Source: a virus (taxonomy: Duplodnaviria > Heunggongvirae > Uroviricota > Caudoviricetes). From it: a stretch of DNA of 40,514 nucleotides. Where the stretch lies: positions 1 through 40,514 of IMG/VR virus record IMGVR_UViG_2529292831_000017; one strand, written 5' to 3'. The notes beneath the pieces were generated by a model, which saw only the letters and a program-made list of their open reading frames with translations, did not search any database and was not told where the DNA came from. The position numbers and the translations under genes are program-made. Positions 698 to 40,514 of the stretch are shown in pieces (position 1 is the first letter of the stretch; every line of letters begins with the position of its first letter).

Positions 698-1060
698 GGG
701 GCTGATTCTGGATTCGACGGGATTTGCGAAACCCAAGGTGCATGCCGAGGGGCGGTTGGCCTCGTAAAAAGCCGCAAAAAATAGTCGCAAACGACGAAAA
801 CTACGCTTTAGCAGCTTAATAACCTGCTTAGAGCCCTCTCTCCCTAGCCTCCGCTCTTAGGACGGGGATCAAGAGAGGTCAAACCCAAAAGAGATCGCGT
901 GGAAGCCCTGCCTGGGGTTGAAGCGTTAAAACTTAATCAGGCTAGTTTGTTAGTGGCGTGTCCGTCCGCAGCTGGCAAGCGAATGTAAAGACTGACTAAG
1001 CATGTAGTACCGAGGATGTAGGAATTTCGGACGCGGGTTCAACTCCCGCCAGCTCCACCA
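698..1060 (+). ncRNA. ssrA: tmRNA (SsrA), 363 nt
   Basis: Begins GGGGCTGATTCTGGATTCGACGGG, contains the tag-reading-frame region, and ends in a tRNA-like 3' domain GGTTCAACTCCCGCCAGCTCCACCA; length and sequence match E. coli ssrA. Confidence 0.93.
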
Positions 1061-1063
1061 AAT
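1016..1063. repeat. attL: 48-bp direct repeat, the intact 3' end of ssrA
   Basis: ATGTAGGAATTTCGGACGCGGGTTCAACTCCCGCCAGCTCCACCAAAT is repeated exactly at 36431-36478. Confidence 0.85.
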
Positions 1064-1070
1064 AAATCAA

Positions 1071-1103
1071 GGGGTTACGTGAAAGCGTAGCCCCTTTTTC
1101 TTT
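1071..1103 (+). terminator. Rho-independent terminator downstream of ssrA
   Basis: GGGGTTACG / CGTAGCCCC stem followed by TTTTTCTTT, immediately 3' of the tmRNA end. Confidence 0.6.
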
Positions 1104-1115
1104 GGTAGTGGCGGC

Positions 1116-1160
1116 AAAATGGCGACAGACTTTTGCGTCCATCTTGCCTGTCGCCATCTT
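1116..1160. promoter_or_regulatory. 10-bp perfect inverted repeat upstream of the WYL/BRCT-like gene (candidate operator)
   Basis: ATGGCGACAG (1119-1128) and CTGTCGCCAT (1148-1157) separated by 19 bp; lies just upstream of the AAGAGG ribosome-binding site of the 1184 ORF. Confidence 0.3.
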
Positions 1161-1183
1161 GAAATCATGCAAAGAGGTTTCAC

Positions 1184-1666
1184 ATGGAAGAACTTCACTT
1201 TGTTTACATCAATGCAAATGGTCGTATCGGTGTTCACTCAATACAGAGCATCAGTTATAGCGAAAATCATATACAGGGCATTTGTAAGAACACCGATCGA
1301 ATAAAAACCTTCCGAAAAGACCGCATTCTTAAACAGTACGATTCACCAGAACAAGCCATTCAGGAATGCGCGTCATTCCTCCCCGAAAACTACTCACATC
1401 TCACTAAGCAGTCTGGTCCGAAAAAAAATACATTCGATGTGTGCTTCACCGGATTTAAGAAAGCAGATAAAGAAAGATTGGTTGATAAGGCGAATGAACA
1501 AGGATTAACGGTAAGAACCTCTGTAACCCAAAGCCTTCAGATGCTCTGTTGCGGTTACAATGCAGGCCCATCAAAAGTATCGGCAGCCAGGATGAAAGGC
1601 ACAATCATCATAGATGAGCCTGGCTTTATACATTTTCTTGAAACGGGTGAGATCCCAGATGAATAA
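1184..1666 (+). CDS. Hypothetical 160-aa protein: N-terminal WYL-like motif (RIKTFRKDRI), C-terminal BRCT-like region
   Basis: Good SD (AAGAGG, 6-nt spacer). C-terminal half (VCFTGF...GLTVRTSVTQS...GYNAGPSKVSAARMKGTIIIDEPGFIHFL) follows the BRCT pattern seen at the C-terminus of NAD-dependent ligases. GC lower than phage backbone. Sits between attL and ogr. Confidence 0.5.
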   Translation: MEELHFVYINANGRIGVHSIQSISYSENHIQGICKNTDRIKTFRKDRILKQYDSPEQAIQECASFLPENYSHLTKQSGPKKNTFDVCFTGFKKADKERLVDKANEQGLTVRTSVTQSLQMLCCGYNAGPSKVSAARMKGTIIIDEPGFIHFLETGEIPDE

Positions 1667-1979: not shown

Positions 1980-3080
1980 TTATTCCATTTCAAGATCATC
2001 AATCTTCACTTCGAGTTCAATGCTGGTTGTAAAACCGTTATCCGGGCTGACGGTATGTGTCAGAGTCGTAATGGTCCATTCCGCATCATCTATCGGCTGT
2101 TTAAAGCCACTGACTTTCACTGGCATTTCCGTGTAGAGATCTGCCCGACCTTCCGCCAGTTGTAGCGAGAATGACGCAACACCACGTTGCAGGCGTTCCC
2201 ACTGCATTTTCGCCGCTCGTTCGGCGTTGCTCCGGTTGGCATAAGTGCGATTAAGTACCAGCACGTTTTCATCCGTACCCACCAGGTAATCGCCCTGCTT
2301 CGCCTCCGGCTCTTTCTTCTGCTTTGCGGTCCTGCGCTTACGCTTCACCGTGGTGCTTTCTTTCTTCGCGGGTTCGCGGGTATGCAACCAGCTGGCAATT
2401 ACGCCCGTATAGGCTCCGCGATCTGCCAGGGTAAAGCGGTGACTGTCGCCGTCCTTACGTGTGATAGTGATCACCGGTAGTGGTTTACCGCTGGCGCTTT
2501 TACCCTGCCCCTGCCGGATGAATAACAGATTGCCATTTTTCACCGACGCAATAGCACCATACTGGCGCGCCAACCGCATCAGAAAACTGCCGTCACTCTC
2601 ATTGGTCTGGTCTATATGTTCCACGGGTTTATCTGACAGGTCTTTACCCAATGCCATCTTCAGTTTGTGCCGCGCAGCTATTTCCTTCACCACTTCCCCA
2701 ACGGTGGTCTTGTGCCACGACTTTTCACGGCGGGGATTCAGCGTTTCCCGAAAATCAGCACTTCGCGCCCGGATAGTCAGGCGGTCCGGTGCGCCAGTGT
2801 GTTCAATCTCGTCCACCGTGAATGCCCCTTTCGGGAAAAGCGGCTGCCCCTTCCAGCCCAGCGCCAGCGTAATAACCGCACCACGGCGCGGCAGCACGAT
2901 TTTTCCGTCAGCGTCATCCAGCTCCAGATCAAGCTGGTCCGCTTCAAAGCCCCGGTTATCCGTCAGCGTCAAACTCATCAGGCGGTTATCCAGCACAGTG
3001 GTGATATCCTTCCCCTCAATACTGATGCTGAATGCGGGAGTTTTGTTGCCTTTGTTAAGCAGTTCAGAGCTGAAATTCAC
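1980..3080 (-). CDS. D: Tail protein D (P2 gpD-like)
   Basis: Size and position at the end of the FI-FII-E-T-U-D tail operon adjacent to ogr. Confidence 0.8.
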   Translation of the reverse strand: MNFSSELLNKGNKTPAFSISIEGKDITTVLDNRLMSLTLTDNRGFEADQLDLELDDADGKIVLPRRGAVITLALGWKGQPLFPKGAFTVDEIEHTGAPDRLTIRARSADFRETLNPRREKSWHKTTVGEVVKEIAARHKLKMALGKDLSDKPVEHIDQTNESDGSFLMRLARQYGAIASVKNGNLLFIRQGQGKSASGKPLPVITITRKDGDSHRFTLADRGAYTGVIASWLHTREPAKKESTTVKRKRRTAKQKKEPEAKQGDYLVGTDENVLVLNRTYANRSNAERAAKMQWERLQRGVASFSLQLAEGRADLYTEMPVKVSGFKQPIDDAEWTITTLTHTVSPDNGFTTSIELEVKIDDLEME

Positions 3081-3562
3081 GACAGCAGCCCTCCCACCGT
3101 TTTACTGATATCGCTTAAGGCAGACGTTGCCGTATCCTGCAAATTATTCAGCTGCGCACGTAGATCACCGAACATATCGGACAGGGATTCATCCACCCGT
3201 TTGAGCGACAGGGTGAACTCAATCCGGCGCGGCATACCATCGCGGAAAAACTCCGTTTTAGTCTGATTCAGTCCCTCAATCACATACATGCCGTAAATCG
3301 TGCCGCTGCCTTCAATCAGGGGCCATGCTTTCCCCTGTTCTGCCATCTGCTCCAGTGCCAGTAACGACAGCCTGCCGCCTGTTATCTCCGGCATAAGAAC
3401 GCCAGAAAGCGTCAGCATGTCGTTATCCGGTCCCAGAAACTGCGTGGACGGGCGTCGGTTAACCCGGCTGTTAGCCGCATGTCGCCAGCTGCGCTGATAC
3501 TGCAGCTCCTGATACGGCACGGTGCGCAGCATAAACACGTACAATCCCAGCACCATCATCAT
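3077..3562 (-). CDS. U: Tail protein U (P2 gpU-like)
   Basis: 161 aa, overlaps the D start and T stop by 4 bp as in the P2 tail operon. Confidence 0.8.
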   Translation of the reverse strand: MMMVLGLYVFMLRTVPYQELQYQRSWRHAANSRVNRRPSTQFLGPDNDMLTLSGVLMPEITGGRLSLLALEQMAEQGKAWPLIEGSGTIYGMYVIEGLNQTKTEFFRDGMPRRIEFTLSLKRVDESLSDMFGDLRAQLNNLQDTATSALSDISKTVGGLLS

Positions 3563-6500
3563 GCGTCGTATCCCCCCTGATCGCTGTAGTTACTCCTGGC
3601 TTTTGCCTTCAGCCTGCGTTCACGTTCATCAAGCTGGCGGGCCACCTCCCGCGCAATATCCTGCGCACTTTGTCCTGGCTGTGTCTGGATGATGATCTGC
3701 GTCGGTGCCTCAATCCGTTGAACGAGCGGCACAGTGGCTGCGCGACTCACAATTGCTTCTCCACCTTTCGCGGGAAGTGCCAAAGGGTGCAACGGTGGAA
3801 GCTCTGCTGGCGCGGCAGCAACGCCCATCATTCCGGCAACAACGGCAGCCAGTGCAGCTGTATTTCTCCGGCTGGTCACATTTGCCGGGCCGTTAACAAT
3901 TTCCGGCCCGTTTTCACCGACGATGCCAAACTGCCCGCGCGGGATATACCCTCCGCTGTCATACATCCCCGCAAAGCCATATCCCCATGACGGAAAACCA
4001 CCCGATGGCATCATCACTTTACCGTCTGCATTCACCGTCGCAAGTTGCTGACGCGTCACGCTTTCCGGCAGTTTTGCCTTTGCGGCCTCTTTACTGACAA
4101 TGCCAAGTTTCTCCAGTAACCATGAAACGCCGGATTTCAGGGAGTCCAGCGGATGCATGACCATATTCAGCCCTTCCGCCAGTGCCTCTCCGAATCGCCG
4201 CCCCATTGCCGCTGCACTCTGCAGTTCGGCAGAGGTCGACTTAACGGGCGTCAGCAGATCAGTAAACCAGCCCCACAGCGCCTGTACTTTGTCGCCAATC
4301 CACTGGAACACGGGCTTAAGCGGTTCGAATGCTGCACTGACGGGACCTGCCGCCGCTTTGAATCCTTCCACCACGCCACCAAGAAATGCGGTGATGGGTT
4401 GCCAGTATTTCCAGACAACCAGCGCCACGCCCGCCAGTGCAGTAACCACAAGACCTATCGGACTGAGCAGAGCACCTAACAGACCAGATACGGCATACAG
4501 GGCAACGCGCAGCATCGCCAGTGGACCAGATGCCAGTACTCGCAGCACCGTGCCTGCGGCGACCAGTCCACCGCGCAGTACCGCCAGAGGATTCATAAAC
4601 ATCACAGCAACAGCACGTAAACCGGATAATCCAGACCGCAAAAGTGCAACCGGCGCACCTGCTACAGTTTTCAGGACATTTCCCGTCAGTGATGCCGTGC
4701 GGCGCAAAGACGACAACGGCGCAGTAAGTAAACCCGCTGCGTTGCCCGATGAAGCAAGCCCGCGTCGCAGCAGTGCCAGTGGAGCGCCAGCTAACCAGGA
4801 CAACGCGCTGCTGGTTCGTGTTACTGCTGCCGTAACGGAAGGTAACGTTTTGATACCCAGCACAGAGAATCCCAGACGGATGACTGCCAGCGGCCCCAGC
4901 ACTGCAGCCAGCGCCACCGCTAAGGTGCCGAGGCCTACGGTAACCGCAGCCACAACAGCCGCTACTTTCATCAGTGTGCCTGTCAGTTCCGGGTTAGCTT
5001 CCACCCAGCGGCGCAACGCCCCCGTGATGCTTTTCACCGTGTACAGAATATCCATCAGCGGCTGGCGCAGCGTTTCGCCCAGGCTGCTGAAGGTGTTCTG
5101 CGCTCCGGTTTTGACCAGCAACCACTGAGCAGAAAGTGAGTCTTTGTTGATGTCGGATTCTTTCTGCATGGAACCGAGCGCATCATTGCCCGCTGTCAGT
5201 TTTAGCTGGCGCTGCAGTTCCGGAAGGTTGTTTGCCAGTTTCGCCGCGTCATCACCAAACTCTTTACCAAACAACATGGTCATGGCAGACAGACGCTTGT
5301 CCTGCGGCAGTGCGTTCACCTTCTCCAGCACACGCTGGATAGTTCCCATCGCATCCTTCGTCATCTGCTTTTCAATCACTTCAGGATTGAGTTTCAGCAG
5401 ATTCATCCCTTCAAAGAAACTCTTGCTTTGCATGGTGGCAATGGACAATTCACGCACCATCGCGTTTGCTGCACTGGCTGCAACCTCTGGCGCAGCACCC
5501 AGTGTCAGAAAGGTGGAACCCAGTGCCGCCGCTTTACGATAATCCAGACGGTCAGCCACACCACCCAGGCGTTGCATGACATCAATGATATCTGCCCCTT
5601 TCGACATGGCGTTATCATCCAGATAGTTCAGCGCATCACCGAGCTGTTCAATATTGCGGGTAGGGATGTTGTAGAGCTGGGCGATTTTCCCCAGACTTTC
5701 TGACAGTTCATCCGCTGGCAGCTCAAAGGCTGTTGCCGCCTTTGCTGCCGTACTGGCGAAGGCCAGCAGGTCACGTTTCTGGTCTTCCCAGCTGTCGTCA
5801 GGGTTTGCGACGTTCATGCGCGCACCACCTTCAACCAGTGCAGCGAAATCCACCGCACCGTTTTCCATCGGCAACTGTTCGCTGGCAGCCTTGATGGCAT
5901 CCTGCATTTCATAAAAACGTGCTGTGCGGTTGCCATTATCGTCACGCAGACCATTGACCTGCTTTGCCACACCTTTCATGGCATCTTCCATGCTGGTATA
6001 GCTTTTTACTGCCGCCATCACTGGTGCGCCCATTGCCAGCCCTGCAGCCGTGGTGGTGGCTCCGGCACCTGCAATACGATCGCGCACCTCCAGCGAACGG
6101 GCATAACTGGCACGTGCTGCATTCATCCTGCGCTGAGCTTCCCCCAGTCGCTTCAGCCGCGCCTCCTGTTTCGACAATTCCTGGTTATAACGTGATGTTT
6201 CACGGGCTAAACGGGCGGTTGCTCCCGCATCATCTTTCGCAGAAATTCCCGCCCGGTACAGTTCTGCACGCACAAGCGCCGTTTGCTTCTGCAAATATTT
6301 TTGCTGTTCTTCCAGGCGTTGGACTGCCAGCGTTTGCCGACCTAAAGCCACAAGGTGCCGTTGTGATGGTTGTTCCATCGCCTCCAGCTCAGAGCTAAGC
6401 AAATTAGCCTTCTGTCTGGCATAGTTCAGCCTGTCGCCTAACTTCTTGTTATCAGCCTGCAGCTTGCGAAATTTTTCCAGGCTATTACCCGCCTGATTGA

Positions 6501-6636
6501 GTTGCTTTAATGCGTCACGGGAGTTTCTGATTGCGCCAGCCAGCTCTTTCGAACTGGCCTGTGCAACACGGAATGGGCGGGGGAGTTTGTCAACCGCATT
6601 AAGAATGACCTGCAGCCGCAGGTTGTTATCACTCAT
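3559..6636 (-). CDS. T: Tail tape measure protein (P2 gpT-like)
   Basis: 1025 aa, Ala/Gly-rich, coiled-coil N-terminus and hydrophobic central repeats; position after E/E'. Confidence 0.9.
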   Translation of the reverse strand: MSDNNLRLQVILNAVDKLPRPFRVAQASSKELAGAIRNSRDALKQLNQAGNSLEKFRKLQADNKKLGDRLNYARQKANLLSSELEAMEQPSQRHLVALGRQTLAVQRLEEQQKYLQKQTALVRAELYRAGISAKDDAGATARLARETSRYNQELSKQEARLKRLGEAQRRMNAARASYARSLEVRDRIAGAGATTTAAGLAMGAPVMAAVKSYTSMEDAMKGVAKQVNGLRDDNGNRTARFYEMQDAIKAASEQLPMENGAVDFAALVEGGARMNVANPDDSWEDQKRDLLAFASTAAKAATAFELPADELSESLGKIAQLYNIPTRNIEQLGDALNYLDDNAMSKGADIIDVMQRLGGVADRLDYRKAAALGSTFLTLGAAPEVAASAANAMVRELSIATMQSKSFFEGMNLLKLNPEVIEKQMTKDAMGTIQRVLEKVNALPQDKRLSAMTMLFGKEFGDDAAKLANNLPELQRQLKLTAGNDALGSMQKESDINKDSLSAQWLLVKTGAQNTFSSLGETLRQPLMDILYTVKSITGALRRWVEANPELTGTLMKVAAVVAAVTVGLGTLAVALAAVLGPLAVIRLGFSVLGIKTLPSVTAAVTRTSSALSWLAGAPLALLRRGLASSGNAAGLLTAPLSSLRRTASLTGNVLKTVAGAPVALLRSGLSGLRAVAVMFMNPLAVLRGGLVAAGTVLRVLASGPLAMLRVALYAVSGLLGALLSPIGLVVTALAGVALVVWKYWQPITAFLGGVVEGFKAAAGPVSAAFEPLKPVFQWIGDKVQALWGWFTDLLTPVKSTSAELQSAAAMGRRFGEALAEGLNMVMHPLDSLKSGVSWLLEKLGIVSKEAAKAKLPESVTRQQLATVNADGKVMMPSGGFPSWGYGFAGMYDSGGYIPRGQFGIVGENGPEIVNGPANVTSRRNTAALAAVVAGMMGVAAAPAELPPLHPLALPAKGGEAIVSRAATVPLVQRIEAPTQIIIQTQPGQSAQDIAREVARQLDERERRLKAKARSNYSDQGGYDA

Positions 6637-7065
6637 CGTTGGCCCCGCTTCTCTGAATCGCTTTATACCGCCATTCCAGCACTTCGGTCAGCGGCATAAC
6701 GTCAGTAACGGATGGCGGCCAGTGAAAAATGGTGGCGATGTCTGCCACCAGATCGTCAACCGTCAGGCTGTCGGTAAACCGGCAAGCACCGACTTCTTCA
6801 ACAAAAAAGTGACAACCTCAACCGACATAGCGGTGAGATCTGCCGGGTCCATCTCTGCGATTTCCTGTGCAGTCAGTACCGGACTGGAAATGCGGGGGAT
6901 CACGGTCATCATCGCGTTCACATCCATATCCATAATGGCCTGCAGGCGCGTGCCGCGCAGCGCACCGGACTGCGGCTTACGCAGCACAATTTCGGTGATT
7001 TCCGTTTTACCGCGCTTGATAGGGGTATCCAGTTGAATGGTCTTTTCAGTCTGCTTATCGCTCAT
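6629..7065 (-). CDS. E+E' tail assembly chaperone fusion made by programmed -1 frameshift
   Basis: Slippery heptamer T-TTT-TTG (- strand, + coordinates 6802-6808) lies 13 codons before the E stop. Hand translation of the -1 frame shows it open from the slip site to a TGA at 6629-6631 overlapping the T start; predicted fusion about 145 aa. Confidence 0.55.
6763..7065 (-). CDS. E: Tail assembly chaperone E (P2 gpE-like)
   Basis: 100-aa ORF between FII and T carrying the slippery site. Confidence 0.8.
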   Translation of the reverse strand: MSDKQTEKTIQLDTPIKRGKTEITEIVLRKPQSGALRGTRLQAIMDMDVNAMMTVIPRISSPVLTAQEIAEMDPADLTAMSVEVVTFLLKKSVLAGLPTA

Positions 7066-7119
7066 TTTGTTGTCCTGTAAATTGGGTTCTGGCGCGGTAT
7101 CCCGCGCCGTTCAGATACA

Positions 7120-7635
7120 TCAGAGGCCGAGGGCGTTGCGGTGCGCTTCCATCAGGTCCACACCGTCCACAATTTCCACCATGTTGATAAGGTCCACTTC
7201 ATAGAGCACCTCACCATTGATGGTCAGCTTCGCGTAGCTGTTGGTACTGGTCACTTTGGTGGTGTTGCTTTCGCCTGTCTTCCACTCGCCGGAATCCACT
7301 TCTTTGTGACGTCCACGCACCACAAGCTCCACGGCCTGCACTTCCCCGGTATCGTCACGCTGGATAGAGCCGGTAAAGCGCAACTGGATGCCATCCACCG
7401 TGGATTTGCCCATCTGCTTAAACAGCAGCAGTTCGGTACCACCAATGGAAAATTCTGTATCCAGTGCACTGTCATCCAGTCCCAGATCCACATCCACCGC
7501 CCCCGGCATACCGCCGCCGCGATACTTCTCATATTTGCGGGTGAATTTCGGCAGCGTCAGCGACTCAACGATTCCCTGCCAGTTGTTCCCGTCGTTAAAC
7601 AGGTTCAGATGTTTTAATTTGCGTGGTAAAGCCAT
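7120..7635 (-). CDS. FII: Tail tube protein FII
   Basis: 171 aa, directly downstream of the sheath gene; P2 gpFII-like size. Confidence 0.85.
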   Translation of the reverse strand: MALPRKLKHLNLFNDGNNWQGIVESLTLPKFTRKYEKYRGGGMPGAVDVDLGLDDSALDTEFSIGGTELLLFKQMGKSTVDGIQLRFTGSIQRDDTGEVQAVELVVRGRHKEVDSGEWKTGESNTTKVTSTNSYAKLTINGEVLYEVDLINMVEIVDGVDLMEAHRNALGL

Positions 7636-7644
7636 GTTGTCCCC

Positions 7645-8817
7645 TTACGCGCTGACCTGGCTGGCGAAATTCACCAGGTACTGATCGGTGATGCGCTGGC
7701 GCAGCATCAGATTTTCAAGTGGCGGCACTGGCGTGTAGTCGTAGTCGATGGTGAGTTTTCCGGCTTTAAGCGTGTCTTTGTCGTTCACCGACTCGTCCAG
7801 CCAGCAATCACCACCAATGAGATAGCCCTGACTGACCAGGCTGCGCATTTTGGCGCGGATACCTTCGATAATGTCGCGGGCCAGCGACGGGTTCAGCGGT
7901 TTGTCTACCGCCCACATGTGTGCTTCTGCCATCGTGTCCGTCAGCACCTGCGCCGTGCGGGTGTAGTTTTCGAAAGCAAAAAGCGGATCATCGCTCAGAC
8001 AGCGGGAACCCCAGAAGCGGAAACCATCCTTGCGCACAAGCGTGGTGACGTCGTTCTGGTTCAGCAGACCTGCATCGGTTGCCGGGTCCTGCAGATCCCA
8101 GAACACATCAGCAGAAATTCCGGTGACACCGTTCACGCCCACGTTGGACAGGCTTTTGTGCCATCCGGTCTGCTCATCAATTTTGGCGCGCAGACCGAGC
8201 GCACGGGCGGTGGCATAAGCCGTTGCTTCGGCATTCAGCACCGTGTCCCAGCCAGTAAAGTCGGGCCAGATCAGCATTCCTTCACGCTGACTGAAGTTTT
8301 CACGGTAAGTGATTGCTTCCTGCACCGTCTTGCAACCATACGCTGACAGGTAAGCAAACCCACGCAGGCTTTGCGCCACGCTCAGCAACTCAGTAGCTAC
8401 CGCCTTCGTGTCGTGACCTGGCACGCCGAGAATGCGCGGTTTAACGCCGAGCTGTGACTGGGCAGATAACAGGGCTTTCATGCCTGTTTTTTTACCTTCA
8501 GCAGTCACTGCGCCGATGATATTGGTCGTGGTTTCTTCTTCCGTTTCACCCTGCGGCACACGCACAACAACGGTCACGGGTTTTGCCTGGTCAGCGATGG
8601 CGTCCAGCGAACGGGCCAGCGTACCGGACTCACCCGCTTTACCGCTGGCGGTCAGCACGTCAGTGATCAGAACGGGTTTATTAAGAGGAAACATTTTTGC
8701 ATCGGCATCATCGCCCGTGCAGACCATACCCACGATGGCGGTGCTCACCGTGGTAATAGATCGGGTGCCTTCGTTGACTTCAACAACGCGCACCCCGTGG
8801 TGGTAATCCTGAGCCAT
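7645..8817 (-). CDS. FI: Contractile tail sheath protein FI
   Basis: 390 aa; first gene of the FETUD operon, P2 gpFI-like. Confidence 0.9.
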
Positions 8818-8892
8818 AAGGCAGTCTCTCCGGTAGTAGAGGGGGTCTGCCTATGTTCTTGTTGATACGAGCAGGATGCACGTTATGTGGTT

Positions 8893-8910
8893 TGTATGAA
8901 AAATGGCACA
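8893..8910. promoter_or_regulatory. TGT-N12-ACA dyad upstream of FI (candidate Ogr site of late promoter PF)
   Basis: TGTATGAAAAATGGCACA, 76-93 bp upstream of the FI start codon; P2 late promoters carry a TGT-N12-ACA Ogr site centred near -55. Confidence 0.55.
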
Positions 8911-8949
8911 ACGGCGGATACAGGAATCCCCGCAGACGCGGGGATGTAT

Positions 8950-26377: not shown

Positions 26378-26387
26378 AAAAGTCACC

Positions 26388-30461: not shown

Positions 30462-30522
30462 TTCTCCTGAATTTAGATAAAGGGATGCCCGGCGGGTTTA
30501 CGCCATTAATTTCATTAGTTGG

Positions 30523-30864: not shown

Positions 30865-30945
30865 TTATGCATCCCACAACACATCTACTAAAAAATTTTT
30901 GATATGATCCATTACCAACATATTGATAGCTAGAAGGAATCATCA

Positions 30946-31409: not shown

Positions 31410-31583
31410 TTGGACTTTCTCCGTTTCCTCGTGGTCAATTCAGACAGCAATTCATCTTGTGAACGGCACGGATGCCAGCGTTTACCATCCTCACCCATGA
31501 TCCAGCCGTGACCGTAGTGCATTGCCGGGCTTTGTTTTACCAGCAGCGATGCAAATGATGGTTCTTTCGTCAGCATAAGCACC

Positions 31584-32093: not shown

Positions 32094-32125
32094 GGTGCTC
32101 CCTTAGAAAGTTCCCATAATTGAAG

Positions 32126-32368
32126 TTACTTACCAACAATGACGCGGAAGTTGGAATGACCGAGGGATTCACGGACCTGATCAGTTTTGTACATCAGATA
32201 ACGCAGGCTTACGCGGCCTTTGTTTTTTTCTTTCTTGACCATGTACTTAGCGAGTTGGCCATGGTGAATTTTTTGGTAAACAGACCCACGGGAAATACCT
32301 TCCCATTCAGCGAATTCAGCAGGCGTAGCCATCTCTTTTGGTACACGAATTGAAATATCTGTGCTCAT
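32126..32368 (-). CDS. apl: Apl/Cox-like excisionase and switch regulator
   Basis: 80-aa basic protein, first gene of the lytic transcript, divergent from cI. Confidence 0.55.
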   Translation of the reverse strand: MSTDISIRVPKEMATPAEFAEWEGISRGSVYQKIHHGQLAKYMVKKEKNKGRVSLRYLMYKTDQVRESLGHSNFRVIVGK

Positions 32369-32475: not shown

Positions 32476-33120
32476 ATGGAGTATTTGATGATCAACATTC
32501 AGGCAGGTCCCAATACGGGAGGTAGAGAGGCGATCGAAAGATTGCTTAAGGCATATGGATTCAGCACCAAACAAGCACTAGCTGACCATTTAAAAATTTC
32601 AAAAAGTACTATGGCAAACAGAAACTTACGAGATAGCTTTCCTGCTGAGTGGGTCATCCAGTGTGCACTTGAAACAGGGGTTTCGCTGCTATGGCTAGCC
32701 ACAGGCCAGGGTGAAATGTTCACTTCAGAAGATCGAGAAAAAAATCCCGTAAACGAGTCAAACGTCACGCTTCGACCACTTTCCAAAATCGTTGCCCCCA
32801 GCATTAAGCAAGCCGAATTGAAGAATGGGGAGTTGAATAACGAAGGGGAAGTCTTGCTTGATAGCAGCTTACTGGACAGTGAGCCCGGCAATTCATTGTT
32901 TATAAAAACGTCTACTGACTGCTTTGTAGTGGATATATCTGTCAAACAGGTTAGCAATGGTTACTGGCTTGTCGATATTGATGGGGTGAAAAGCATCGTC
33001 AAGATTGCCCGAATACCAGGCAACAGAATTGTTGTTCACCAGGACGACTCATCCTTTGAGTGTTCTGTTGATGATGTGGAAGTTGTCGGGCGAGCCATTA
33101 AAGTAATCAAGAGTATTTAG
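32476..33120 (+). CDS. cI: CI-type immunity repressor
   Basis: N-terminal HTH-like segment (KQALADHLKISKSTMANRN) plus C-terminal domain; co-oriented with and directly upstream of int. Confidence 0.75.
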   Translation: MEYLMINIQAGPNTGGREAIERLLKAYGFSTKQALADHLKISKSTMANRNLRDSFPAEWVIQCALETGVSLLWLATGQGEMFTSEDREKNPVNESNVTLRPLSKIVAPSIKQAELKNGELNNEGEVLLDSSLLDSEPGNSLFIKTSTDCFVVDISVKQVSNGYWLVDIDGVKSIVKIARIPGNRIVVHQDDSSFECSVDDVEVVGRAIKVIKSI

Positions 33121-33122
33121 TC

Positions 33123-34142
33123 ATGACCATCAGGAAACAGCCGAACGGAAAATGGTTGTGTGAGTGCTACCCTAACGGGCGGGACGGCAAGCGCGTGCGC
33201 AAGCAATTTGCGACGAAAGGCGAAGCCGTAGCATTCGAAAACTTCACCATGGATGAAGTAAACAAAAAACCATGGCTGGGGGAAAAGGAAGATCGGCGGC
33301 ATCTGTCAGAAGTGATAGAGCAATGGCACTCACTATACGGGCAGACGCTCGCAGACCCCAAACGCCTGATGGCGAAACTTAGAATTATCTGTAATGGCCT
33401 GGGCGACCCTATCGCCTCAGAGCTGACCGCCGGAGATTTTACGAAATACCGTGAAGCGCGATTAAAAGGTGAAGTGCGAAATGAAGATGGCGCGCTTATG
33501 TCGCCAGTTAAGCCCCGAACGGTAAACCTCGAACAACGCAACCTATCATCAGTTTTTGGGACTCTGAAAAAACTGGGCCACTGGTCAGCCCCTAACCCGC
33601 TCGCCGGTCTGCCAACATTCAAAATCGCAGAGGGTGAACTGGCATTCCTGACCCCAGAAGAAATTAAACGCCTGCTGGATGCCTGCGCGGATTCTCAAAG
33701 CCCCAGCCTGCTGATGATTGCAAAAATATGCCTAGCTACTGGTGCGCGGTGGAGTGAAGCAGAAAACCTGCAGGGCCATCAGTTATCAAAATACCGCATC
33801 ACTTATACCAAGACGAAGGGCAAGAAAAACCGTACCGTGCCGATATCTCAGGATCTGTATGACGAACTCCCCAAGAACAGAGGGAAGTTATTCACCCCAT
33901 GCAGAAAAGCTTTTGAGCGTGCAGTTAAACGAGCTGGTATCGACTTGCCAGAGGGACAATGTACCCACGTCTTGCGCCATACATTCGCCAGTTACTTTAT
34001 GATGAATGGAGGGAATATTCTTGTACTAAGAGATATTTTAGGCCATTCAGATATAAAAATGACTATGGTCTATTCTCATTTTTCACCTGAGCATCTTGAA
34101 GATGCTGTAACAAAAAACCCTTTATCATCACTAGCGATTTAA
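33123..34142 (+). CDS. int: Tyrosine integrase (P2/186 Int-like)
   Basis: C-terminal catalytic region HVLRHTFASYFMMNGGNILVLRDILGHSDIKMTMVYSH with the R...HxxR...Y signature. Confidence 0.9.
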   Translation: MTIRKQPNGKWLCECYPNGRDGKRVRKQFATKGEAVAFENFTMDEVNKKPWLGEKEDRRHLSEVIEQWHSLYGQTLADPKRLMAKLRIICNGLGDPIASELTAGDFTKYREARLKGEVRNEDGALMSPVKPRTVNLEQRNLSSVFGTLKKLGHWSAPNPLAGLPTFKIAEGELAFLTPEEIKRLLDACADSQSPSLLMIAKICLATGARWSEAENLQGHQLSKYRITYTKTKGKKNRTVPISQDLYDELPKNRGKLFTPCRKAFERAVKRAGIDLPEGQCTHVLRHTFASYFMMNGGNILVLRDILGHSDIKMTMVYSHFSPEHLEDAVTKNPLSSLAI

Positions 34143-34146
34143 CATA

Positions 34147-35358
34147 ATGAAAATTAATAAAATTAGTACCACAGATTATGTAGCAATGCTTAATGAAATA
34201 TTATTCGAAATAGAGTCCAAACCACTATTAAAAGCTCCTTATCTCGCGGGAAATAATATCATTAAAGATTTTAACAATAGGGTTAAATGTTACCTAGAAG
34301 TCATAAACAAGATTTACAGTAAAAACCCTCACAACCTTGTAATTCGTGAAATAAAATCAAAAATAAAAAGCACAAAAACACTCTCGGATAAAATTTCAGA
34401 AACACTTAGATTATATTTAAACGGTAAAATCAAAGAATCTTACCTAACATTTGATCACGCTATCACCAAGACAAATATAAATGACCACATCTATAATATG
34501 TCCGTTCCATTAAGTGTGTTTTGTCATCCTGGAAAACCTCTATTTCGCGTAAGAAAAAGCGATCAAATAATAAAAGAAAGGCGTGATATCTTTCATATTC
34601 CTTTTTCTAAACGTTATCTTGTGAATGCACAAAGATACTCAGTCTCAGGCCTTCCTTGTTTATATTTAGGAACCTCTATTTTTGTATGTTGGCAAGAAAT
34701 GGAAAAACCAGACTTTGATAAATTATATGTATCTTCATTCATCACAGAGTCTGGTTCATCACATAGAATACTTAACCTTGGTTATAATTTGAGATCAGCA
34801 TTGAACATAAACACCTTAGCATGGCTGTTAGATAATGATACTGAAGGAACTATGAATAGGGTCATTTCGAACTTAATTTCCTGGCCACTTGTGTTAGCCT
34901 GTAATTATACAAAACAACATAAAAACTCTAGTTTCAACCCTGAGTACATAATCCCCAACCTTCTTATGCAATGGCTCAGCAGCAATGAAAATAAGGGCAT
35001 AGCCGGTATCGCTTATCGCACGACTAAAATTCTCAATCAAAAAGATAGTGATATTGGTATTAATATAATCATGCCACCTAAAATGGATAATATTTTGGAT
35101 TCTGGTTATGATTACTGCCCACACTTACTAAGTGTATTTAAATTTACCAAACCTGTTTCATGGCAAGTATTTAGCACTTTAAACGTCAAGACCGATGGTA
35201 TGGATGAAGATAGACTCATAATGGGAGGACCAACTCCAGCATCAGGTACAATTGAAGATTTTGATGAATCGCTAGTGGAATATTACAATAATACCTCATT
35301 CAAAAAAGTTCAATTGTTAATTCATAAAATGATGAAGCATGATTATCTTGAGCCTTAA
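34147..35358 (+). CDS. Accessory gene: 403-aa protein with RES-domain-like motifs
   Basis: About 30% GC; starts 4 bp after the int stop; LFRVRK...QRYSVSGLPCLYLGTSIFVCWQEM and later GIAGIAYRTTKI...GINIIMPP follow the RES pattern (conserved Arg, Glu, Ser/Thr). Confidence 0.5.
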   Translation: MKINKISTTDYVAMLNEILFEIESKPLLKAPYLAGNNIIKDFNNRVKCYLEVINKIYSKNPHNLVIREIKSKIKSTKTLSDKISETLRLYLNGKIKESYLTFDHAITKTNINDHIYNMSVPLSVFCHPGKPLFRVRKSDQIIKERRDIFHIPFSKRYLVNAQRYSVSGLPCLYLGTSIFVCWQEMEKPDFDKLYVSSFITESGSSHRILNLGYNLRSALNINTLAWLLDNDTEGTMNRVISNLISWPLVLACNYTKQHKNSSFNPEYIIPNLLMQWLSSNENKGIAGIAYRTTKILNQKDSDIGINIIMPPKMDNILDSGYDYCPHLLSVFKFTKPVSWQVFSTLNVKTDGMDEDRLIMGGPTPASGTIEDFDESLVEYYNNTSFKKVQLLIHKMMKHDYLEP

Positions 35359-35387
35359 GTGGCGGCGTTTTGGCGGTAGAGTATTAA
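35359..35387. repeat. 29-bp imperfect direct repeat, copy 1 (copy 2 at 36317-36345)
   Basis: GTGGCGGCGTTTTGGCGGTAGAGTATTAA versus CTGGCGGCACTTTGGCGGCAGAGCATTAA (24/29 identical); each ends in the stop codon region of a cargo gene. Confidence 0.6.
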
Positions 35388-35391
35388 GAGG

Positions 35392-36345
35392 ATGCAGTTA
35401 CAAAAAACCTCTAACTCCATTATAGAAATAGGAAGTGATCTGATGAATAACATCATCTATACAAACGAACAATATGAAATCGAAAATCTAAGTATAGCCC
35501 TGTATGCAATTTTCGATAAAATAAAAGAAAGGATTTCCATCGCCGAAGAATCTAACATTTACACTATCAGAGATGTTGGTCATAACTCGGAATCTCAAGT
35601 TTGCAAAAACACTTTTAATAAATTAACGCAATTTTTTGATTCAAACATTCTTTACATCCAAGACTGTGAAGTCTTAATTTCATATATAACAGAGTGCAGT
35701 TTGGAACTCTCTGTTATAGCGCAACAATTTTATGAAATACTCTGGAGCGATTTGTTAATAACCACACCAGACAAAGATTTTAAAGGGATTTTAGTAGCAA
35801 AATCGCCAAAAACAAGCTTGCTATTTTCTTTGTTAAGCATGCTATTTATAAAAATGAATAGTTTGTTTGACTACGTTACTAAAATCTCCTTTGAATTATT
35901 AAAGAGTAACTTCCCAATCTCTAAATACAAGAAATTAATATCCAAAAATAAATTATACGGCAACTATAAAGAATTAGTTTTTTCGACAACAACGGATACC
36001 ATATTTGAAAATAGCAATTTTATAAACACTGTAACATCATTACGAAATCATATAATTCACCACGGTTATATAGATGAGCACCCAAAGGTATATGTTGAAG
36101 TGGAAAATGGCATTGCATTTGGGAGATTTGTACTATTCCCCGATTTGAATGAGAGTGGAGGACTGGAAAATTGCATTAACAGAACTTTATTCTATTCAAA
36201 AGAAACAAAGATTGATGAAAAATTACCTGACTTAATTAAGGAATGCCAAATTAAAGTAATTAACTCGTTGAAGGTACTAATTAAAGATCATGAAGCATTA
36301 GAAGATTCAAGAAAGACTGGCGGCACTTTGGCGGCAGAGCATTAA
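35392..36345 (+). CDS. Accessory gene: 317-aa protein with an Rx4H (HEPN-like) motif
   Basis: About 30% GC; motif SLRNHIIHHG parallels SLRNALFHNG in the 13616 ORF; the ATG at 35443 has the better SD (AGGAAG, 7-nt spacer). Confidence 0.5.
   Translation: MQLQKTSNSIIEIGSDLMNNIIYTNEQYEIENLSIALYAIFDKIKERISIAEESNIYTIRDVGHNSESQVCKNTFNKLTQFFDSNILYIQDCEVLISYITECSLELSVIAQQFYEILWSDLLITTPDKDFKGILVAKSPKTSLLFSLLSMLFIKMNSLFDYVTKISFELLKSNFPISKYKKLISKNKLYGNYKELVFSTTTDTIFENSNFINTVTSLRNHIIHHGYIDEHPKVYVEVENGIAFGRFVLFPDLNESGGLENCINRTLFYSKETKIDEKLPDLIKECQIKVINSLKVLIKDHEALEDSRKTGGTLAAEH
36317..36345. repeat. 29-bp imperfect direct repeat, copy 2
   Basis: See copy 1; a related sequence AGTGGCGGCAAAATGGCGACAGAC also occurs near attL (1107-1130). 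Confidence 0.6.
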
Positions 36346-36430
36346 AAACGAGTAAAATGAACAAACACCGAGTAATACCAACCTACTGTTTTAAAAAGCA
36401 AATCATTGTTTTTGTTATAGTTAAGATAGT

Positions 36431-36478
36431 ATGTAGGAATTTCGGACGCGGGTTCAACTCCCGCCAGCTCCACCAAAT
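36431..36478. repeat. attR: second copy of the 48-bp ssrA 3' end
   Basis: Exact copy of 1016-1063; flanks diverge immediately outside the repeat. Confidence 0.85.
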
Positions 36479-36506
36479 CATGATCCGGATACGTCCGGTG
36501 AAGTGC

Positions 36507-36545
36507 AAAAAGCCCGCATGGCACAAGCCCTGCGGGCTTTTTTGT
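36507..36545. terminator. Bidirectional rho-independent terminator after attR
   Basis: AGCCCGCA...TGCGGGCT stem flanked by AAAA and TTTTTTG. Confidence 0.6.
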
Positions 36546-36588
36546 GTCTGTCGTTGTCCGAGAATATCCGGCTAAATCCGGTGATTAT

Positions 36589-36640
36589 TGGTATACGTTT
36601 AGGTATACGGTAGGATGTATACCTAAAAGCGTATACCAAT
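36589..36640. promoter_or_regulatory. Four GTATAC-containing repeats upstream of the P4-type integrase
   Basis: GTATAC at 36591, 36604, 36617 and 36631 (13-14 bp spacing); the outer pair forms the inverted repeat TTGGTATACG...CGTATACCAA; ends 20 bp before the int SD. Confidence 0.35.
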
Positions 36641-36659
36641 TCATGAAGGAGCGGCCACA

Positions 36660-37856
36660 GTGGCACGGACAACACGCCCCCTGACCAACACCGAAGTTCT
36701 GCGCGCTAAAGCGATGGAGAAGGATCTAACGCTGCATGATGGCGATGGCCTTTTCCTAATAGTGAAAACCAGCGGGAAAAAGCTCTGGCGCTTCCGTTAT
36801 CAACGTCCAGTGACAAAACAGCGGACAATGATGGGACTAGGTGCTTTCCCCGCTCTTTCACTTGCTGACGCCCGAGGGTTAAGAGCAGATTACCTTGCCT
36901 TGTTAGCCAACGGAATTGACCCACAAATTCAGGCCGAAGTTGCAAAGGAACAGCAGCAAATCGCTCTGGACAGTATTTTTTCAACGGTTGCCGCTAACTG
37001 GTTCCAGCTCAAAAGTAAAAGCGTTACCCCTGATTACGCAAAAGACATTTGGCGTTCACTGGAGAAAGATGTATTCCCTGTCATTGGTGAGATCCCCGTT
37101 CAGCAAATCAAAGCACGAACTTTGGTTGAAGCCCTTGAGCCAATCAAAGCTCGTGGGGCGCTTGAGACTGTACGTCGACTTGTGCAGCGCATCAACGAGA
37201 TAATGATTTATGCCGTAAACACTGGTCTGATTGATGCCAATCCAGCATCAGGTATTGGAATGGCCTTTGAGAAGCCCAAAAAACAAAACATGCCGACGCT
37301 GCGGCCAGAAGAATTGCCGAAGCTGATGCGTTCTTTGGTTATGTCTAATCTGTCTGTTCCGACGCGTTGTCTTATTGAGTGGCAACTTCTCACGCTTGTG
37401 CGCCCTTCTGAAGCATCCGGCACTCGATGGGCAGAAATCGATCTCGATGCCAAGCTCTGGACGATCCCAGCCGAACGGATGAAGGCCAAGCGTGAACATA
37501 TTGTTCCTCTATCTCCTCAGGCATTAGAGATTCTGGAAGTAATGAGGCCAATCAGTGCTCACCGTGAGCATGTTTTTCCAAGCAGAAATGATCCAAAGCA
37601 AGCGATGAATAGTCAGACTGCAAATGCCGCGTTAAAACGAATTGGATATGGAGGTAAATTAGTAGCTCATGGTTTGCGCTCAATAGCGAGTACTGCTATG
37701 AATGAAGCTGGTTTTAATTCAGATGTGATTGAAGCAGCACTCGCTCATAGTGATAAAAATGAAGTGCGAAAAGCTTATAATCGCGCGACATATATCAATG
37801 CTAGAAAAGAAATTATGAATTGGTGGGGAAATTGCATCAATAAAAGTAAGATCTAA
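36660..37856 (+). CDS. P4-type tyrosine integrase (CP4-57 IntA-like)
   Basis: 398 aa, GTG start with SD AAGGAG; N-terminal arm-binding-type domain plus catalytic region (HGLRSIAST...LAHSD...VRKAYNRATY); P4-family integrases typically target ssrA and tRNA genes. Confidence 0.9.
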   Translation: MARTTRPLTNTEVLRAKAMEKDLTLHDGDGLFLIVKTSGKKLWRFRYQRPVTKQRTMMGLGAFPALSLADARGLRADYLALLANGIDPQIQAEVAKEQQQIALDSIFSTVAANWFQLKSKSVTPDYAKDIWRSLEKDVFPVIGEIPVQQIKARTLVEALEPIKARGALETVRRLVQRINEIMIYAVNTGLIDANPASGIGMAFEKPKKQNMPTLRPEELPKLMRSLVMSNLSVPTRCLIEWQLLTLVRPSEASGTRWAEIDLDAKLWTIPAERMKAKREHIVPLSPQALEILEVMRPISAHREHVFPSRNDPKQAMNSQTANAALKRIGYGGKLVAHGLRSIASTAMNEAGFNSDVIEAALAHSDKNEVRKAYNRATYINARKEIMNWWGNCINKSKI

Positions 37857-37878
37857 AATTAGATCTTACTTTCATCAA

Positions 37879-38787
37879 TTAGATCATGGTTGCTATGCGT
37901 TCTTTTAAATAACCAAATTGCGTGTAGCCTTCATTCTTTTTAATTAAACTTGCTATTTGAGACTCGTTATAGCTACCTTCAAATCCATAAAGACAGAGCT
38001 CATCATTCCCACTGTAACAAAACTGACATTTATCTACCTCATCATGCAGACATTTTGTTTTCAACCCTTTAATTTCACCAATTAACATTCGGCAGAATTC
38101 GCCAATTAACCACTTACCTTTACATATATTAAGTAAACCTGCTAAGTCTTTGCTTACCCCCATCTGAATAGCAAATTCATCAAGTTCTTTTTCTCGCTCA
38201 ACAATTTTTTCAAAAGCGCCTATATTTTTCAAGTGTTGAACGCTCATCTTATATGATGCTAGAGATTCATAATCTTTCACGCAAGCTTTTTTCAAGCACT
38301 CTAAAGACATATAATACAACGACATTAGAGCCTCTGCTAAATTTTCATAGAGCATCTCAATTAACTCACTGGTTAGCAATTTTGGCTGTATTCTTGTACA
38401 TTGTTCAATAACACATTTTATTGCCTGCCGTGTGATAAAATGGCTTTCCATCGAGTACCATCTCAGCACAAAAACGGCTGAATTATTAACAACTTCACCT
38501 CGGTAGTAGCGAGCATCTCGATCTATAATGCCTAAAATGTAGTGCCCTAAATCCCCCTCATACTCAAGTTCAAGTAATGCCTCAATAAAGTCAATTACAC
38601 CTCTATTACCTTCACTCATATCCTTGAAATTCTGAACAGCAACCACCTCGAAATATTTATCAAGCTGTTGACAAATGCCTTCATAAATTGAAATGTCATC
38701 GACGCCTTCAACGACTAACATTGGCGTTTCAGACATAATTGCCTCATTCAATATTTCATCATACTCCATACTCAGCCAATCGTTCAT
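37879..38787 (-). CDS. ariB: TOPRIM/DUF4435-like nuclease, PARIS AriB-like (302 aa)
   Basis: N-terminal LVVEGVDD glutamate motif and ILGIIDRDARYY DxD motif; AT-rich; 4-bp overlap with the upstream ATPase gene. Confidence 0.55.
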   Translation of the reverse strand: MNDWLSMEYDEILNEAIMSETPMLVVEGVDDISIYEGICQQLDKYFEVVAVQNFKDMSEGNRGVIDFIEALLELEYEGDLGHYILGIIDRDARYYRGEVVNNSAVFVLRWYSMESHFITRQAIKCVIEQCTRIQPKLLTSELIEMLYENLAEALMSLYYMSLECLKKACVKDYESLASYKMSVQHLKNIGAFEKIVEREKELDEFAIQMGVSKDLAGLLNICKGKWLIGEFCRMLIGEIKGLKTKCLHDEVDKCQFCYSGNDELCLYGFEGSYNESQIASLIKKNEGYTQFGYLKERIATMI

Positions 38788-40079
38788 TTCGAATTATTCT
38801 CAATTTTAACCGGTGCAAGTTTAACCAGACTGTTGGGTGACTTCTTAGATATGATAGGGCTATGAGAGGCCACGATTATTTGTGTTTCTGGCACTAATTC
38901 CTGTAGAAGACTCAGCAATGTACGTTGCCATTTGATATTAAGAGAAATTTCTGGCTCATCAATAAGTAGAATATCTCTTCCACGACCTGCAATTATAACT
39001 ATTGATAGAAAGGTAAGAATATGCCTTTCACCACTTGATAATGCTCCGATGGATAAATGAGAGTCTTCAGTTTCAACATATATCTCATGCTTATTAATAA
39101 TTAACTTTTTATCTCCAACCAAGAAGGAGTTAAAGACATCAACCAAGATGTTAATGGAACTTAAAAGTTGTTTCTCAACCTTTAATTCACGAGTCATATT
39201 CATGACTAACTTTCTCAACAGTTGGTTTTCAAGTATTTTATTAACATCAGATTCACTTTGTATTGATGATAAAATATTAACAACATGATTTTTAAAATTA
39301 TTCTCAAAACCATCATCCAACGCTTCAATAATCCTCTCTTTATTTTTATATACATCACTCTCAAAATTCGAAGGCATCACGATATCTTCAGAAGTTTTCT
39401 TTGCATCCACTGCTATGGCCAACGTATCAAACAACGCATTTTGAATTCTTTCAGTAGCTATATTCCTTGCTAATAGATAACGTTCAACAAGCATATTCTC
39501 GATATTACTCATTTTTATATTTTGAAGAAAAACATGTTTTGCATCTAAATCCATATCATCTTTTTTATTTCTCCTCCTGTTGTTTTGATATCTCTTTAGA
39601 AACATTGCCATCCTTTCACTAAACAAATGAATATCTGTCTTCGCAAATAAAGAGCGATATTCTGGATGACCAAGAAATCTCAAAATATCCACTGGTTCAA
39701 CTTTCAATGACTCTGATGTTACGCCCCTCTCCACACCAAGAGATAATGATGTACAATCAGCTAATTCAGAATCGACAAGATCGCTCCAGTCGTATGAGTC
39801 TTTAATAATCCCCTCTTCTCCCTCCTCTTGAATCTGTCTTACTGGTACAAACTCTCTTTCTCCATTATTTTTCTCATAATAGATTTCAACATACATTACA
39901 TTTTCGCTTGCAAGCGACTCATCATCACGTTTAAGGATAGAATGTATTAATTTCAAAAATGTAGTTTTACCGCAACCATTATCACCATAAATAACAGATA
40001 TGTCACCATCAGCAAATTCAACATAAGCTGCTCTGTTAATTGATTGGAAGCCTGCAATGTATATAGATAATAGCTTCAT
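38784..40079 (-). CDS. ariA: ABC-type ATPase, PARIS AriA-like (431 aa)
   Basis: Walker A GDNGCGKTT, ABC signature LSSGERHIL, Walker B ILLIDEPE, H-loop ASHSP; AT-rich. Confidence 0.6.
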   Translation of the reverse strand: MKLLSIYIAGFQSINRAAYVEFADGDISVIYGDNGCGKTTFLKLIHSILKRDDESLASENVMYVEIYYEKNNGEREFVPVRQIQEEGEEGIIKDSYDWSDLVDSELADCTSLSLGVERGVTSESLKVEPVDILRFLGHPEYRSLFAKTDIHLFSERMAMFLKRYQNNRRRNKKDDMDLDAKHVFLQNIKMSNIENMLVERYLLARNIATERIQNALFDTLAIAVDAKKTSEDIVMPSNFESDVYKNKERIIEALDDGFENNFKNHVVNILSSIQSESDVNKILENQLLRKLVMNMTRELKVEKQLLSSINILVDVFNSFLVGDKKLIINKHEIYVETEDSHLSIGALSSGERHILTFLSIVIIAGRGRDILLIDEPEISLNIKWQRTLLSLLQELVPETQIIVASHSPIISKKSPNSLVKLAPVKIENNSK

Positions 40080-40244
40080 TACATCTCCATTATTGCATCA
40101 AGGGTTTAGTTTTAAGAAAATGCCCGAGAAGTTTATTACAACTAACCATATGATTCTACAACCATAAAGACTTTAACTTTTTTCTCATCAATCACAAGTC
40201 CTTGAAGTGAAAATTTATAATTATAAATTCTTTGCCTACGCGCA

Positions 40245-40263
40245 GTGCTTTCCCCGCCTCGCC
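40245..40263. other. P2/P4-type cos site
   Basis: Reverse complement is GGCGAGGCGGGGAAAGCAC, matching (from recollection) the 19-nt P2/P4 cohesive end, in a GC-rich non-coding stretch. Confidence 0.6.
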
Positions 40264-40514
40264 CGCCCGCTTTGCGGGGCGGTTTCAATGCAGTTGCACT
40301 GACACGCTCAGGCCGCGCCGGGAATGGCGCGGTCTGCAGAAAATGAGGCAGGAAAACGCATGCAAAGCCATGCACCTTATCGATGCATGGCTTTTTTCAG
40401 TAAAAACGGGCGGATTTTCGGGGAATTTTACACAGACTGATGTGATGCCAGTTGCGCACTTTTACGCGAAAAAATCATGTTCTGCGCAGGAGTGAATTTT
40501 TCACGGCTGTCATC

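Follow-up and report, generated by a model that had tools for sequence, protein, structure and literature searches.

The DNA analysed here comprises positions 1 to 40,514 of the IMG/VR virus record IMGVR_UViG_2529292831_000017 (hereafter the window). It carries, downstream of the bacterial tmRNA gene ssrA, a P2-family prophage followed by the beginning of a P4-type satellite. The chromosomal flank contains smpB (1-483, plus strand, from the PGAP annotation of a 100% identical stretch of Escherichia coli strain 504237) and an intact ssrA (698-1060, plus strand). The latter was identified by ARAGORN, with the tag peptide ANDENYALAA, and matched Rfam family RF00023 over its full length (295.8 bits). 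An Rfam scan of the window returned this tmRNA gene alone and no other RNA family. The sole notable long-range direct repeat paired positions 1013-1063 with 36428-36478, 51 nt with a single mismatch at the third base. The initial annotation had reported that the 48-bp 3′ end of ssrA occurs twice, that a P2/186-like prophage lies between the copies, and that an element with a P4-type integrase begins after the second. All of this was borne out: the 48-bp copies at 1016-1063 and 36431-36478 are exact, they bound a complete P2/186-family element of 35,415 bp (1064-36478), and a 398-residue integrase starts 182 nt beyond the second copy.

Sequences adjoining the two copies were compared with those of strains carrying one element only. 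The first copy (plus strand) is the prophage attL and is followed by a phage-derived hairpin and T-run; phage DNA adjoins it, and the present 3′ end of ssrA comes from the prophage attachment site. The second copy (plus strand) is the prophage attR and the bacterial half of the satellite attL. It is adjoined by CATGATCCGG..., exactly what follows ssrA in strains that carry the satellite alone. The far attachment site of the satellite, as seen in strain 100181, is short and degenerate relative to the ssrA end (TTCAAACTCCGCCAGCCCACCAATCATGATT), and GGTATAC-containing repeats occur inside both satellite ends (loci L001 and L002). The satellite integrase probably binds the repeat at 36588-36610 (plus strand) as an arm-type site. 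Because the far site is degenerate and the repeats lie inside both ends, we conclude that the two integrases use overlapping but different portions of the ssrA 3′ end, and that the second ssrA copy doubles as prophage attR and satellite attL. The initial annotation had made its picture depend on use of this second copy by the P4-type integrase. Elsewhere the same element abuts an intact ssrA with an identical junction, which speaks for such use. Under the mechanism proposed here, the integrase of the first element would recombine within the last 48 bp of ssrA, the prophage attachment site would restore the gene, and the displaced copy would be left at the far end of the prophage, where the second element would start.

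On its gene content, the prophage is a complete member of the Peduoviridae (P2 family). Window positions 1-36475 were 100% identical to E. coli strain 504237 over the parts queried (1-25000 and 34000-36475). The PGAP annotation of that strain gives the full P2-family set: ogr, tail and lysis genes, L-M-N-O, P-Q, A, a Dam methylase, CII, an Apl/Cox-like excisionase, CI and int. All core open reading frames (ORFs) are intact, fil alone being truncated according to PGAP. Homologues of Q, P, O, N, M, L, FI, D and ogr were all found in the order expected of P2-family late genes: Q and P are oriented divergently to O-N-M-L, the lysis genes come next, those for tail and baseplate follow, and ogr closes the series. 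From the attL end, the minus strand carries the late-gene activator ogr/B (1693-1911; PGAP; 56% identical to P2 Ogr and 67% to 186 B), the tail and baseplate genes D, U, T, E/E′, FII, FI, tail fibre and its assembly protein, I, J, W and V (1980-13538; PGAP; by tblastn, FI 68-70% and D 54-56% identical to P2 and 186), and S, R, lysis genes, X, L, small terminase M, capsid N and scaffold O (14469-20276; PGAP and identities to P2/186). The terminase ATPase P and portal Q lie on the plus strand (20419-23213), assigned on the same grounds. They are followed on the minus strand by replication endonuclease A with a Dam-type methylase (26730-29998; PGAP) and the early lytic operon (29995-32368; phrog_575, phrog_6912 and PGAP), which contains cII (31584-32093), the truncated fil pseudogene and the Apl/Cox-like excisionase (32126-32368). 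The CI-type repressor and a tyrosine integrase with Int_N and Phage_integrase domains complete the element on the plus strand (32488-34142).

The nearest named phage was Cartapus (Peduoviridae, Elveevirus), with 96.3% identity across 77% of the late region, followed by the Klebsiella 4LV2017 group. Fels-2, SopEPhi, SEN8 and the Elveevirus group differ from the prophage in hotspot cargo and in the tail-fibre region. The cos region was 92.6% identical to that of SopEPhi. Like the prophage, Fels-2 and SopEPhi reportedly integrate at ssrA. A literature search on Fels-2 as a P4 helper found no report. E. coli 504237 is the only other place in which the exact prophage genome is known, and it is an unannotated prophage there; its presence in a second strain at 100% identity suggests that it was mobile recently. 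In 504237 the prophage is followed by a different island with a P4-family integrase, encoding a response-regulator-receiver protein, an ATP-binding protein and an IS3 element (locus L003, 36641-43179). This indicates that the phage inserts at ssrA whatever adjoins it downstream.

Comparison with P2 and 186 placed the prophage well apart from both. Its proteins were identical to those of P2/186 at 59-60% of positions for capsid N, 63% for large terminase P, 49-50% for small terminase M, 45% for scaffold O and 62-63% for portal Q. The corresponding identities between P2 and 186 are 76% (N), 88% (P), 70% (M) and 81% (O). The control region resembled that of coliphage 186, with CI and int on one strand, Apl and CII divergent, and a DinI/Tum-like gene behind a LexA-like box. 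Identities to 186 were 71% for CII, 53% for Int and 30% for both CI and Apl; Int was 38% identical to that of P2. Homologues of P2 C and Cox were not found in the window by protein comparison. Coliphage 186 differs in its structural and packaging proteins (45-63% identical), in its cos overhang (15/19) and in its attachment site. The DinI/Tum-like gene lies with a 62-codon ORF at 26144-26637 (minus strand) and its product is 41% identical to the C-terminus of 186 Tum. A CTG-N10-CAG LexA-like box is present upstream (26618-26637). Strict LexA-box scans of the window (CTGT-N8-ACAG, and a 20-mer consensus with 3 mismatches) gave no match, and only this looser box was detected. Because the DinI/Tum-like gene sits behind it, induction by the SOS response in the manner of 186, through Tum-like control, is plausible.

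The satellite was examined using the core set of the P4-like family, int, psu, delta, sid, alpA, epsilon and alpha, as defined by Moura de Sousa and Rocha (PMC8628076). The window itself holds int, cargo, cos and 87 nt of psu, and statements on the satellite past 40514 draw on near-identical copies. A P4-family integrase lies at one end (36660-37856, plus strand; 398 residues, ssrA-specific; Arm-DNA-bind_3, Phage_int_M and Phage_integrase domains; NF007246, 587 bits), 34% identical to P4 Int. A helper-type cos lies between the cargo slot and psu. The 3′ end of psu (40428-40514, minus strand, coordinates transferred from locus L001) is cut by the window end after 28 C-terminal codons, which are 96% identical to P4 Psu. 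Strain 100181 has an element directly adjoining ssrA that matched positions 36433-40514 at 99.9% identity. In that element Psu, Delta, Sid, Vis, Epsilon, ORF151, ORF106 and Alpha share 98-100% protein identity with P4, while Int shares only 34%; the Alpha primase-helicase and Epsilon, both beyond the window, were 99-100% identical to P4 in the near-identical copies. The P4 capsid-redirecting genes, whose absence would have counted against the initial annotation, are thus present in copies of 99.9% identity, where psu, delta and sid are 98-99% identical to those of P4. Relative to P4 (NC_001609), the satellite has an identical cos 19-mer, a 59-nt cos block matching at 57/59 positions, cos-psu DNA of 97.6% identity and the same gene order (int, cargo, cos, psu, delta, sid ... 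alpha). It differs in its integrase and ssrA target, and in carrying AriA/AriB-like cargo and not gop, beta and cII. The integration site of P4 itself is a tRNA-Leu gene. Judged from these comparisons, the satellite is P4 itself with an exchanged integration module and different cargo.

The element downstream could instead be a decayed, CP4-57-like cryptic island that is no longer mobilisable. In ssrA islands with a P4-family integrase directly downstream, successive elements each regenerate the 3′ end of the gene, as here. Both the degenerate far attachment site in strain 100181 and the short portion of the satellite visible in the window would fit a decayed remnant. The exact integrase protein was indexed in 288 blocks of the assembly collection, and 8 places were examined. 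All 8 held the same complete satellite, with the full core set and intact ORFs; 7 lacked the prophage, and 1 was in tandem with a different P2-family prophage. The high protein identity to P4, the 57/59 cos block and the near-identity of copies across unrelated strains, which argues for recent mobility, likewise speak against decay. Unlike in a decayed ssrA island, the integrase here belongs to an intact P4 satellite, and we consider a cryptic island very unlikely.

The initial annotation had noted that the two elements carry different cos sites and had raised the question of whether the prophage could act as helper for its neighbour. The sites were indeed distinct. The prophage cos 19-mer, GGCGTGGCGGGGATACGAG (24971-24989, minus strand), is of the SEN8/Fels-2 type, and the satellite cos 19-mer, GGCGAGGCGGGGAAAGCAC (40245-40263, minus strand), is identical to that of P2 and P4. 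Each gave a single exact match in the window, with 0.03 and 0.01 matches expected by chance, respectively. They differ at 5 positions (5, 14, 16, 17 and 19). Both 19-mers lie where cos cleavage falls. In alignments with the window, the P4 record reaches its right end at position 40264, making the satellite 19-mer the left cohesive end of P4 in circular form, and the SEN8 phage record ends at 24990. The SEN8 genome paper annotates ggcgtggcggggatacgag, the same 19-mer as that of the prophage, as the SEN8 cos (PMC5427200). As expected of Peduoviridae, the prophage site is a GC-rich 19-nt cos that has Q on one side and the replication region on the other and is accompanied by the conserved flanking block. 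This block, GCAT.AAAACC...AAAGCGGGC, is common to prophage and satellite. Between the two elements, the overhang matched at 14/19 positions and the 59-nt block at 43/59. The corresponding values for the proven helper pairs were 17/19 and 51/59 for 186 and P4, and 19/19 and 52/59 for P2 and P4. The two cos sites are co-oriented and 15.3 kb apart, and in situ packaging of the DNA between them was also considered, but was dropped because its size fits neither capsid. A further reason against it is that P2 terminase acts on circular monomers.

A census was taken of the elements that carry each cos type, using the first 120 IMG/VR loci per 19-mer and a further 54 GTDB loci for the SEN8 type; the correlations come from these limited samples. 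Among IMG/VR loci, the P2/P4-type cos was found in 96 phages and 23 satellites (1 unclassified), the 186/PSP3 type in 115 phages and 2 satellites (3 unclassified), and the SEN8 type in 112 phages and 0 satellites (8 unclassified). The phage/satellite split differed significantly between the SEN8 and P2 types, as determined by Fisher's exact test (p = 9e-8). The 54 GTDB loci gave 42 phages, 0 satellites and 12 unclassified, so that no satellite with psu/sid carried the SEN8-type cos among 174 sampled loci. Two loci with this cos and no phage genes nearby (L020 and L026) were considered as candidate satellites and rejected, one being a remnant beside lptFG and the other having defence cargo beside cos. 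Two genomes of Chitinimonas (Betaproteobacteria; loci L008, L009, L013, L014, L017, L038, L041 and L052) each held several exact SEN8-type 19-mers. One of these loci, L052, has a P4-family integrase gene and a Delta-like gene on the flanks of the 19-mer and may be a satellite.

A second lineage of P4-like satellites was found in E. coli D3 (locus L002, 28150-28225) and at loci L431-L434, with a Psu about 28% identical to that of P4. Its cos is a 23-mer, GGCGGGCGGGGCAGCGCAC, which was seen in satellites only: its 4 loci comprised 3 satellites, 1 unclassified element and 0 phages. The flank tells a different story from the overhang. D3-type satellites share the 15-mer GGTGCATGAAAACCA with SEN8-type phages, where P4-type satellites, P2 and 186 have GCATT(A/G)AAACC. 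This match in flank, and not in overhang, hints that terminase specificity may lie in the cos flank, and that the window satellite would belong to the P2/186 compatibility group.

The arrangement was also found elsewhere. Of 5,426 complete E. coli genomes, 19 had a junction between a phage attR and an ssrA-type P4 integrase, 7 of these at full coverage and 12 at 78-79% coverage starting inside phage DNA (1 of the 12 checked directly). The architecture is repeated in strains D3, SCU-172 and E47, where each slot holds other cargo. Four tandems were inspected for cos type: the prophage had the SEN8 type in 4/4, and the satellite had the P4 type in 3/4 and the D3 type, a third type, in 1/4. The ssrA array of E. 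coli E47 has three members, as the satellite there is followed by one more integrase gene (locus L062, 24811-25953). In E. coli PSS-08-2, PGAP calls the partial ssrA copy at the prophage attR a 177-nt tmRNA gene (locus L435, 2482-2658), a call that could mislead automated counts of ssrA.

Taken together, these data give us good confidence that the window holds two independent integrative elements, a complete P2-family prophage and a P4 satellite, inserted in succession at one site, the 3′ end of ssrA. Their adjacency follows from the attachment site that both use, and not from functional coupling. Alternatively, the junction near 36.4 kb might be an assembly chimera created by the 48-bp ssrA repeat, since the exact combination occurs in no complete E. 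coli genome. The architecture, however, recurs in the 19 complete genomes and in one further assembly, and a 48-bp repeat is too short for systematic misassembly by modern assemblers. The RefSeq protein numbers are also consecutive, running from WP_001726272 to WP_001726301 in the prophage, with the satellite DUF4435 protein at WP_001726305, which suggests that both elements were first registered from one genome. A chimera therefore seems extremely improbable. As to order, the phage was most probably inserted into ssrA upstream of an already resident satellite. This is the simpler order because the satellite mostly occurs without the phage and an identical phage adjoins another island.

A more demanding interpretation is that the two elements form a working helper-satellite pair. 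The SOS-induced prophage would then be hijacked, with Delta and Ogr cross-activating the late genes, Sid shrinking the capsid and the prophage terminase cutting the P4-type cos. Several observations favour such a pair and weigh against the account of two uncoupled neighbours. A TGT-N12-ACA dyad, a candidate target of late-gene activation, is present in all three late-promoter regions, at 20355 (P/O), 13585 (V) and 8893 (FI). Five residues of gpN are known whose mutation blocks Sid, namely M184, D206, Y207, A217 and L221 (PMC7552001). The prophage gpN is identical at 4 of these 5 (M184, Y207, A217 and L221) and has a conservative change at the fifth, D206E; its sir loop is about 55% identical overall to that with which it was compared. 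The helper 186 likewise retains 4/5. The cos flanking block and its architecture are common to both elements, and a satellite lineage whose cos 23-mer occurs in no sampled phage implies that an exact overhang match between satellite and helper is dispensable. Coliphage 186, whose overhang differs from that of P4 at 2/19 positions, is reportedly a P4 helper. The same tandem recurs in 19 genomes. Two further points limit the account of successive insertion rather than favour a pair: the satellite beyond 40514 is read from near-identical copies, and insertion of the satellite into the prophage attR would give the same structure, the order of integration not being provable from one window.

Other evidence points the other way. 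The overhang has 5/19 mismatches, and the 43/59 block falls below both helper pairs, 186-P4 and P2-P4. The small terminase is just 50% identical to P2 M, and N, P, M and O are all far more diverged from P2/186 than those two phages are from each other. The SEN8-type cos was carried by 0 of the psu/sid satellites in the census. The P2 C-type repressor, the target of Epsilon, is replaced by a CI-type repressor 30% identical to 186 CI, and Epsilon-mediated derepression is not expected, in keeping with the published behaviour of 186. The common attB already accounts for the recurrence of the tandem, and the identical prophage also adjoins a non-satellite island in 504237. The satellite is built for packaging by a terminase that recognises the P2/P4-type cos. 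Late-gene activation, and a capsid that responds to Sid, could plausibly come from the prophage beside it. On balance, the comparisons lean against cognate pairing. The prophage is probably a poor or non-cognate packaging source for the satellite, and a working pair is possible but rather doubtful. Two independent elements brought together by ssrA remain the preferred account.

A broader proposal can be built on the census, though we offer it as conjecture and think it a little less likely still. Phages of the Fels-2/SEN8 type may have escaped piracy by P4 through divergence of cos and terminase, leaving the window satellite stranded and making the D3-type lineage the true parasite of this group. 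If so, cos type would define helper-satellite compatibility groups within one host species. The arrangement itself is known biology: P2-family prophages, P4 satellites, ssrA integration, tandem arrays, cargo hotspots and PARIS have all been published. Its value is modest, as a natural test case in which a canonical P4 hijacking module sits beside a P2-family phage more diverged from P2 and 186 than they are from each other. Such strains bear on the helper range of P4, and on whether the overhang or the flanking block carries terminase specificity.

Accessory genes were found at the low-GC positions 1184-1666, 13616-14467, 23251-24903 with 25150-25761, 34147-36345 and 37879-40079. The count of five accessory loci in the initial annotation was fair, one of the five being split by cos. 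All of these positions have been described as P2/P4 hotspots (PMC9122126; PMC13586616). The satellite cargo, on the minus strand between int and cos, is a PARIS-like pair, AriB (DUF4435, 37879-38787) and AriA (an ABC/AAA ATPase, 38784-40079), assigned by Pfam-type domains and by PADLOC (AriA 1e-28, AriB 4e-13). The adjacent genes scored 62.0 bits for AAA_15, 76.2 for AAA_21 and 42.9 for DUF4435, against the thresholds of 32, 27 and 27 bits used by Rousset et al., and are thus predicted to encode a PARIS system. The PARIS of E. coli B185 (Rousset et al. 2022, PMC9122126; PDB 8ux9) has the same domain pair and occupies the same P4 int-cos hotspot. It is distant from the satellite pair, AriA matching the solved AriA at E = 2.5e-14; the satellite AriB gave no sequence match in the PDB.

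In the prophage, the hotspot around cos carries a KAP-family P-loop NTPase on one side (23251-24903, minus strand; PF07693 1.4e-8; PADLOC candidate PDC-S49 2e-25; GC 0.34) and a 203-residue ORF on the other (25150-25761, minus strand). The latter is named 'valyl-tRNA synthetase' in RefSeq. This is probably a misannotation, because its sole support is a match to a tRNA-binding arm below threshold (16.7 bits, cut-off 25.9). Between attL and ogr, a 160-residue ORF (1184-1666, plus strand) matched phrog_2561 (2e-77) and PDC-S48 (2e-7) and has a BRCT-like C-terminus (1e-3, below the Pfam cut-off). The phrog_2561 family is labelled 'DNA ligase', and the ORF shows a weak likeness to the C-terminus of LigA. 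The position of P2 orf30 is occupied by a 283-residue ORF with an RNALFH (Rx4H) motif (13616-14467, plus strand), for which phrog_4373 was the sole family match; in strain D3 the same slot holds a TIR-domain protein. Cargo between int and the attachment site (34147-36345, plus strand) comprises a RES-domain protein (34147-35358) and a protein with the Rx4H motif (starting at 35392 or 35443 and ending at 36345). The former has a RES fold with the conserved Arg, Glu and Ser of RES toxins. The ORFs at 13616-14467, 34147-35358 and 35392-36345 had no match in Pfam, NCBIfam or PADLOC even at E = 10. The int-att slot of E47 holds an annotated anti-phage dCTP deaminase.

Two minor repeats were also observed in the prophage. 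A 26-nt sequence at 26611-26636, which holds the LexA-like box, recurs with 81% identity at 27913-27938 inside gene A. The tail-fibre gene contains an internal direct repeat of 239 nt and 71% identity (9895-10133 and 10375-10613).

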